A DNA stretch of 64,000 nucleotides, from NCBI RefSeq assembly GCF_030028105.1, contig NC_092387.1, positions 33,241,590 to 33,305,589 of the forward strand. The letters run 5' to 3'. Shown here piece after piece: positions 25,610 through 25,856 of the stretch; positions within the stretch are counted from its first letter, which is position 1, and the number at the start of each line of letters is the position of its first letter. Source of the DNA: Mobula birostris (lineage: Eukaryota). The position numbers and the translations under genes are program-made. Under the pieces are notes generated by a model, which had not been told where the DNA came from, searched no databases, and was given only the letters and a program-made list of their open reading frames with translations.

Positions 25610-25625
25610 TGTACAGCGAATAAAA
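25610..25625 (-). other. Non-tRNA primer-binding site complementary to the element's own LTR
   Basis: Minus strand TTTTATTCGCTGTACA, 1 nt after the 5' LTR; exact reverse complement of minus-strand LTR 25697-25682. Confidence 0.8.
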
Positions 25626-25626
25626 T

Positions 25627-25856
25627 TGAAGCACCTTCAATTACTCCAAAAGACTGAGGTTTGGTAAAAATACTGAAAGGCTTTTATTCGCTGTACAATA
25701 CGACTTCCACAGTGAGTGTCTGCCCCCGGACTGAGGGGGAGGGGCAAGATGAACACCTTTATAGAGGACTTTGTGGGAGGAGCCACAGGGGCAGTCAGCA
25801 GAGGGGTGTGTCCAGACAGTTAACCCAGTTACAACATACATACGTGGTTTACCACA
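25627..25856 (-). repeat. 5' LTR
   Basis: Minus-strand TATAAA at 25763-25758 and AATAAA at 25688-25683. Confidence 0.95.

Follow-up and report, generated by a model that had tools for sequence, protein, structure and literature searches.

Retrotransposons of the Tf1 type prime reverse transcription without a tRNA: the primer-binding site (PBS) beside the 5' LTR can pair with a stretch of the element's own LTR, and a cut in the transcript frees the 3' end that is extended (PMC7175516, PMC4600332). In Tf1, RNase H makes this cut between bases 11 and 12 (PMC7175516). Self-priming has been assigned to the Tf1/sushi chromoviruses, Tcn1 and TAR, the criterion being a complement of at least 10 bp that links the region past the LTR to the LTR of the element itself (PMC6317226). 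TAR, a plant lineage like Tcn1, lies outside the chromoviruses, and the available parts of the same source describe no link to a poly(A) signal in either (PMC6317226). Skipper has an unexplained non-tRNA PBS (PMC5006619), mosquito Mag elements have PBSs for tRNA-Leu, tRNA-Ser or tRNA-Arg (PMC3286476), and the CsRn1 clade combines a tRNA-Trp PBS with a CHCC Gag motif and a 4-bp target-site duplication (TSD) (PMC2582038). In HIV-1, structural occlusion of the 5' poly(A) signal has been proposed (PMC12789967). PMC3601003 and PMC6934838 are further sources on what is known, and the clade tables in the supplements of PMC6238403 may bear on the name of the lineage described here. Neither self-priming in a metazoan Gypsy element outside the chromoviruses nor fold-back copies of the kind reported below were found in the literature searched, a search that lay outside subscription journals and Repbase.

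The window, that is the whole 64,000-nt stretch of Mobula birostris DNA that was analysed, contains a Ty3/Gypsy element of 4,465 bp on the minus strand (25856-21392), recognizable as such by its LTRs, TSD, polypurine tract (PPT) and the order gag-PR-RT-RH-IN. Its features are listed below in the direction of transcription; where no other basis is named, they were read from the letters.

25857..25861, minus strand: left TSD, ACGAC
25627..25856, minus strand: 5' LTR, 230 bp, TG...CA
25758..25763, minus strand: TATAAA, putative promoter element, in 65 of 71 family copies
25729..25734, minus strand: Inr-like TCAGTC, 31-33 nt from the TATA box in 55 of 71 copies
25732, minus strand: predicted cap site, the A of the Inr-like TCAGTC, LTR position 125, 31 nt from the TATA box
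25682..25697, minus strand: candidate self-primer segment, LTR positions 160-175, with AATAAA at 25688-25683; 16/16 complement of the PBS and joint of the fold-back copies
25631..25681, minus strand: R/U5 loop with a second helix (LTR positions 176-185 with 216-226) predicted by folding
25626..25626, minus strand: single spacer A between LTR and PBS
25610..25625, minus strand: PBS position, without TGG
24281..25600, minus strand: Gag and protease, ending prematurely after a frameshift; Pfam matches below curated cut-offs
22325..24471, minus strand: RT, RNase H and integrase core in two frames; Pfam RVT_1, RT_RNaseH and rve
21692..22285, minus strand: C-terminal frame of integrase, with neither a chromodomain nor a Tf2-type SH3 (0 Pfam families at E<=1)
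21622..21639, minus strand: PPT
21392..21621, minus strand: 3' LTR; its primer copy (21462-21447) has one mismatch
21387..21391, minus strand: right TSD, ACGAC

The two LTRs are identical at 217 of 230 positions. Gag, whose ATG lies 9 nt past the PBS, carries two Cys/His knuckles, and three tandem 45-nt repeats (24724-24858), coding and in frame, lie between these knuckles and the protease. The copy is decayed, its pol spread over four frames by frameshifts; Pfam recovers RT, RNase H and integrase core in Gypsy order together with weak matches to Gag, knuckle and protease. The best PDB sequence match is Ty3 Gag-Pol, the nearest named Gag homologues are from Mobula (90-92%), and among the pol relatives at 52-65% identity are named proteins of cnidarians, nematodes, flatworms and insects. 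The element shares its 5-bp TSD, its short LTRs and the lack of a chromodomain with the Mag lineage and the Cigr-1 clade; the two knuckles of Gag and the compact single ORF are presumably further resemblances to both. Unlike the mosquito Mag elements, with which it was compared by description only, it has no PBS for tRNA-Leu, tRNA-Ser or tRNA-Arg (PMC3286476), and the three CsRn1 traits are likewise absent.

Past the 5' LTR the element reads A (25626) and then TTTTATTCGCTGTACA (25625-25610), the exact reverse complement of 25697-25682. The partner in the LTR, positions 160-175, ends in AATAAAA, and 56 nt separate it from the PBS. A 16-mer match of this kind within a 230-nt LTR has a chance of about 3e-8, and none of 300 shuffles reached it. 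A preliminary description of this DNA had claimed an LTR followed by no UGG, 16/16 pairing with the element's own LTR, a single mismatch in the 3' LTR copy and a paired strand whose 3' end is directed into U5, the geometry of minus-strand priming; all of this was confirmed, and its figure of about 65 nt between the TATA box and a complement covering AAUAAA became 66 nt, counted from the start of TATAAA at 25763. By the 10-bp criterion of PMC6317226 the element, with 16/16, is a candidate for the self-primed class. As in Tf1/Tf2, Tj1 and the Tf1/sushi chromoviruses, the PBS of the window family pairs with the element's own LTR, has no TGG and matches none of the tRNAs sampled, and a cut would be needed to free the 3' end. 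As in TAR, Houba and Osr-1 of Ty1/copia, and in Tcn1, all of them predicted self-primers, the mode of priming is deduced from PBS/LTR complementarity; TAR differs from the window element in belonging to the copia superfamily (PMC6317226). The 8-bp hairpin AATTGAAG/CTTCAATT (25642-25624) that had also been described at the U5 end is present in the letters, but its pairing probability in the folded leader is about 0 and, by eye, none was seen at the junctions of relatives; it was rejected as a functional part and is, on this fold, probably irrelevant.

Querying the genome with the LTR-gag region gave 1,939 first-look candidates, and exact patterns counted 341+167 = 508 normal LTR-PBS junctions. 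At least 15 of the 16 pairs are kept in 62 of 71 distinct family copies. The changes among them are mostly private except at PBS position 16, which is A or G (G still pairs, as G-U) and changes 10 times on the copy tree, no more scattered than ordinary CpG sites, a weak or null outcome for primer-driven conversion of this position. Covariation inside the family is near nil (1 compensated, 41 G-U and 30 broken among 1,136 cells in the 71 copies). Several copies retain open frames of more than 1,200 codons, so the family is young, and assembled RNA contigs, from runs guessed to be RNA, cover the element but display neither transcript starts nor ends. Four Gag queries for a second family of the lineage in this genome returned the same family as far as checked. 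In two LTRs (L351 and L352) a deletion or a 4-nt replacement ends exactly at position 175/176; with L331, described below, they are at most indirect traces of an RNase H cut that would free the primer.

Relatives were collected as 94 loci from metagenome and GTDB contigs, which are probably animal DNA; 36 have a Gag match and 24 of these enough upstream DNA. Each was searched blindly for the longest perfect stem ending near gag and compared with 300 shuffles. A stem of 10-16 bp was present at the PBS position in 18 of the 24, a length equalled in each case by no more than 2 of 300 shuffles (shuffle mean about 6 bp), p-values that overstate independence because the families are related. Apart from the first TTT the PBSs of relatives have nothing in common, each matching its own LTR, and L033/L037 and L034/L036 differ by compensatory changes in the stem. 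PBS/LTR covariation, which the preliminary description had put forward as a check, is therefore found between families. The six relatives that failed the perfect-stem test comprise two with bulged or G-U stems by eye (L082, L085), two in which the LTR partner of the PBS is deleted (L069, L102) and two with weak Gag matches (L045, L061). The deletions in L069 and L102 possibly reflect mis-transferred strong-stop DNA or chimeric assembly; both LTR deletions of L102 end at A|GCC, which is the predicted cut site. As far as sequence comparison can tell, self-complementarity at the PBS is a real, lineage-wide feature. No relative was found in viral contigs. Gypsy elements in GTDB bacterial genome bins (L111-L124; Rubritalea, Ekhidna, Hyphomicrobiales) are probably contaminating animal DNA.

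Geometry was compared in 17 families, namely the stem-positive families with the window family, L082 and L085. The junction reads CA-A-TTT in 14 of the 17, and the 3' arm of the stem always starts 0-1 nt past the CA of the LTR. The first four loop bases, usually RCCT, have a 4-bp partner, usually AGGY, in 15 of the 17 families, against 5.1 expected and with none of 100,000 simulations reaching this number. No shared TATA spacing was seen, by eye, among the invertebrate-type relatives. L090 has just 21 nt of loop from primer to PBS, which implies a very short strong-stop DNA. The paired stretch contains or ends in AATAAA or ATTAAA in 11 of the 17 families and has GTTAAA, TTTAAA or similar in the other six, two of which have a canonical signal in the loop.

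In the predicted fold of the window 5' leader, AAUAAA is unpaired about 0% of the time, whereas four of its six bases are more than 90% unpaired in the 3' LTR fold. The second helix is formed in a shifted register, competing with the last two primer pairs, and, as long as the RNA is uncut, the fold pairs the last primer base with the PBS at a frequency of just 14%. The earlier proposal that the duplex masks the 5' poly(A) site thus holds, as a prediction of the fold, for this family; it fails as a rule for the lineage, where the signal is paired in only 11/17 families. Masking is, on these models, likely to be a side benefit. The HIV-1 5' poly(A) hairpin is comparable in that RNA structure may hide a 5' AAUAAA (PMC12789967), and differs in that here the strand predicted to do the masking would be the PBS itself, which follows the 5' LTR only.

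Products of the duplex were sought in the genome by looking for PBS sequence that runs on into the LTR stretch upstream of the primer, in reverse complement. The search gave 45 such fold-back copies joined at the duplex, all of them inspected, beside the 508 normal junctions, and a reversed-pattern control gave 0. A 5-bp TSD flanks 32 of the 45. Twenty-four have the structure LTR(1-230)-A-revcomp(175 to 1), palindromes of about 405 bp (380-428) with two U3 ends, and their TSDs are perfect in 20 cases and have one mismatch in 4. Eight more complex fold-backs are also TSD-flanked. L302 is a complete element whose 3' LTR is followed by the same extension. In L300 the interior of the element is inverted back to the PBS, giving an arm of 4.2 kb. 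The arms of L299, L305, L310, L311 and L316 jump to internal sequence and end in a normal U5; that of L299 stops at 126, adjoining the predicted cap, other jumps lie away from the cap at 140, 143 and 93, and one segment of L316 ends at LTR position 159. At the start of L331 stands U5 copied in reverse, as far as 176-172. The remaining 13 are truncated, without clear TSD, or not extended.

Because 45 fold-backs are joined at the duplex and 32 of them carry a TSD, the duplex was extended into DNA and the product integrated. The arms average 96% identity within a locus, against 93% across loci, and fall into at least three subfamilies; the fold-backs are thus neither read artefacts nor one amplified copy. 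An assembly artefact was rejected on the TSDs and the arm identity of about 96%, and simple genomic inversion cannot yield TSD-flanked palindromes; inversion between PBS and 3' LTR is also rejected for L300, whose right end holds LTR 19-230, not 160-230. In the fold-backs the last PBS position follows the letter of the LTR, G being found in 1/43 as against 167/508 normal copies (p=3e-6; p~0.001 for the same contrast within the G-bearing subfamily). Junctions at 176 were not in excess (2 pattern matches against 4 in the control), the two being true junctions and the four control matches point changes; the outcome for a fixed cut at 176 was weak or null. A copy of A + PBS follows the 3' LTR in full and partial elements (L302, L335), so the minus strand began on PBS sequence, one base outside the LTR. 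Six arms pass the LTR start into PPT or pol (L300, L303, L305, L310, L311, L327), and their template must therefore have been a strand containing the 3' LTR. The fold-backs establish that the duplex primes DNA synthesis, whichever piece of RNA is the primer. They would be by-products of reverse transcription in which a plus strand ending in A + PBS was extended on the LTR and inserted by integrase; snap-back of plus strong-stop DNA, for which a plus strand ending in the PBS suffices, also accounts for the palindromes.

The lineage was compared with chromoviruses bearing a Tf2-type SH3 from the same genome, not with Tf1 or sushi themselves. The integrase C-terminal frame of the window element matches 0 Pfam families at E<=1, in agreement with the earlier claim that it has no chromodomain, whereas three local control elements match Chromo at E 1e-9 to 1e-13; the combination of chromodomain and Tf2-type SH3 that marks Tf1/sushi integrases is thus absent. 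A quick RT-RNase H tree (59 rows, midpoint root, sampling seeded by the lineage, four low-coverage chromovirus loci dropped) separates 11 true chromovirus rows and 3 TGG-PBS rows from the lineage (SH-aLRT 100); row L281, labelled chromovirus, is a copy of the window family. RT-RNase H identity to the same-genome chromoviruses is about 24-32%. The RT phylogeny, another check named in the preliminary description, hence sets the lineage on a branch apart from chromoviruses, with local elements standing in for Tf1/sushi. Four chromodomain-type Gypsy elements of the same genome (L289, L292, L293, L294) have a PBS complementary to their own LTR over up to 11 nt, which by sequence makes them self-primers of the Tf1/sushi type. 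Three of the local chromovirus copies with both LTRs have a 9-11 bp stem, and their loops are 175-217 nt long, against 21-66 nt in the lineage, whose primer, unlike that of Tf1/sushi, is 10-18 nt long and ends at an NNTAAA hexamer. Fold-backs in the local chromoviruses number 0 against 32 normal exact junctions (p~0.06).

The complementarity was observed directly, as were its conservation and covariation between families and the fold-back DNAs found integrated; that the lineage self-primes in one form or another is very probable. The reading I favour, with a probability of about 0.58, is a Tf1-like cut of the 5' LTR transcript near AAUAAAA|GCC that leaves a capped primer of about 51 nt, cap and cut both being predicted. 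Transcription would start at the Inr (called from the Inr consensus) at LTR position 125; positions 160-175 would pair with the PBS 56 nt downstream, a second helix forming at 176, and a nuclease, by analogy with Tf1 the element's own RNase H, would cut at the helix junction and free a capped primer with an unpaired 35-nt leader. Minus strong-stop DNA would then span 231 to 176 and jump to the short stretch of the 3' LTR between AAUAAA and the poly(A) site. Such a jump would account for a primer end at the poly(A) signal or directly before it: with strong-stop DNA ending at 176, the 3' end of the RNA must reach past 176, and a poly(A) signal placed at the primer end or shortly after it ensures this. 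Plus-strand DNA would end in a copy of the primer and, in about 8% of matched junctions, would be extended on the LTR instead of undergoing normal transfer, giving fold-backs that integrase inserts, while concealment of the 5' poly(A) signal by the duplex would be incidental. The primer of Tf1, going by the title of a paper, is reportedly retained.

The chemistry is probably the same Tf1-like cut. Of the earlier interpretation, the absence of a tRNA-type PBS and of a chromodomain is supported, as is a position apart from chromoviruses; the claim of a mode distinct from Tf1 hangs on the predicted TATA/Inr start, which would put the paired stretch 35 nt inside the transcript, unlike in Tf1.

A different source of the primer, unlikely in my estimate, is the 3' end of the RNA: the 3' LTR copy, ending or cut at AAUAAAA, would pair with the PBS and carry U3 and the whole genome behind it. 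The six arms that run through U3 into PPT or pol fit this, above all the TSD-flanked 4.2-kb arm of L300 that reaches the PBS, as do the many arms (most of them) that reach U3 and the coincidence of the primer end with the poly(A) signal. Long arms would, however, also be explained by a template switch of plus strong-stop DNA, and no more than 56 nt separate the 5' copy from the PBS. The U5 copy of L331 stops at 176-172, short of the cap. Furthermore, in four families (window, L085, L094, L033) the second helix has its partner strand 33-45 nt past the primer, farther out than the usual poly(A) site 15-23 nt past AAUAAA (PMC12789967).

Quite unlikely, too, is the plain Tf1 mode, in which the packaged RNA would start at LTR position 160 and its first 16 nt would be the primer. 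Tf2 has alternative start sites (PMC5341516), the L316 segment ends at 159, and a leaderless primer would allow a clean second strand transfer. Against this stand the TATA and Inr upstream, 31-33 nt apart in 55/71 copies, and the absence of an AT-rich box 30 nt before position 160; the 11-nt primer of the local chromoviruses, in comparison, begins about 25-30 nt past a TATA-like box (by eye).

A duplex with no role beyond hiding the 5' poly(A) signal or folding the leader, something else doing the priming, I regard as very improbable. AAUAAA is fully paired in the 5' leader fold and mostly free in that of the 3' LTR, and occlusion of this kind is what has been proposed for HIV-1 (PMC12789967); yet the 3' arm sits invariably at the priming position, 0-1 nt past the CA, the paired hexamer is non-canonical in 6/17 families, and the A + PBS copies of L302 and L335 place the start of the minus strand there. 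Hardly credible, finally, is a tRNA, tRNA half or other host RNA as primer: the PBS has no TGG, its best match among the 11 distinct Rfam-derived tRNA-Lys sequences that made up the whole tRNA sample is 5 nt, so that the comparison of the 16-mer with tRNAs was negative within that range, no Rfam match was obtained, none of 30 loci examined among 126 genomic matches to the 13-nt primer end off its usual context is a tRNA (18 are the element itself), and, a stronger argument than thin tRNA sampling, past the first TTT each family's PBS tracks its own LTR.

Tf1-type self-priming is known; new here is a lineage-wide variant with unusually direct fossil support, for which cap site, cut site and masking role are predictions. 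A bolder reading, to which I give somewhat less than even odds, is an animal-wide Gypsy lineage that evolved self-priming independently of chromoviruses and primes with its poly(A)-signal region, through a capped leader or an RNA 3' end cut at TAAA|RCCT...AGGY, in a duplex that both primes and silences the 5' poly(A) signal, and in which read-through of the long primer gives the two-U3 palindromes, a class of integrase-inserted DNA that would preserve the priming intermediate in the genome. A widespread metazoan self-primer outside the chromoviruses would, if real, mean another origin of self-priming and would explain elements annotated as lacking a PBS. Fold-backs offer a genome-only readout of reverse-transcription intermediates that can be applied to any candidate self-primer. 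They also give an origin for MITE-looking palindromes of about 400 bp, which could yield hairpin RNA against the family.

Elsewhere in the window, the decayed 3' end of a non-LTR retrotransposon (26776-27729; weak zf-RVT match, endonuclease-like C-terminus by eye) adjoins the element. Another repeat is present as inverted copies at 45728-46574 and 59875-60661, 77% identical, the first of which contains a 208-aa frame at 45818-46444.
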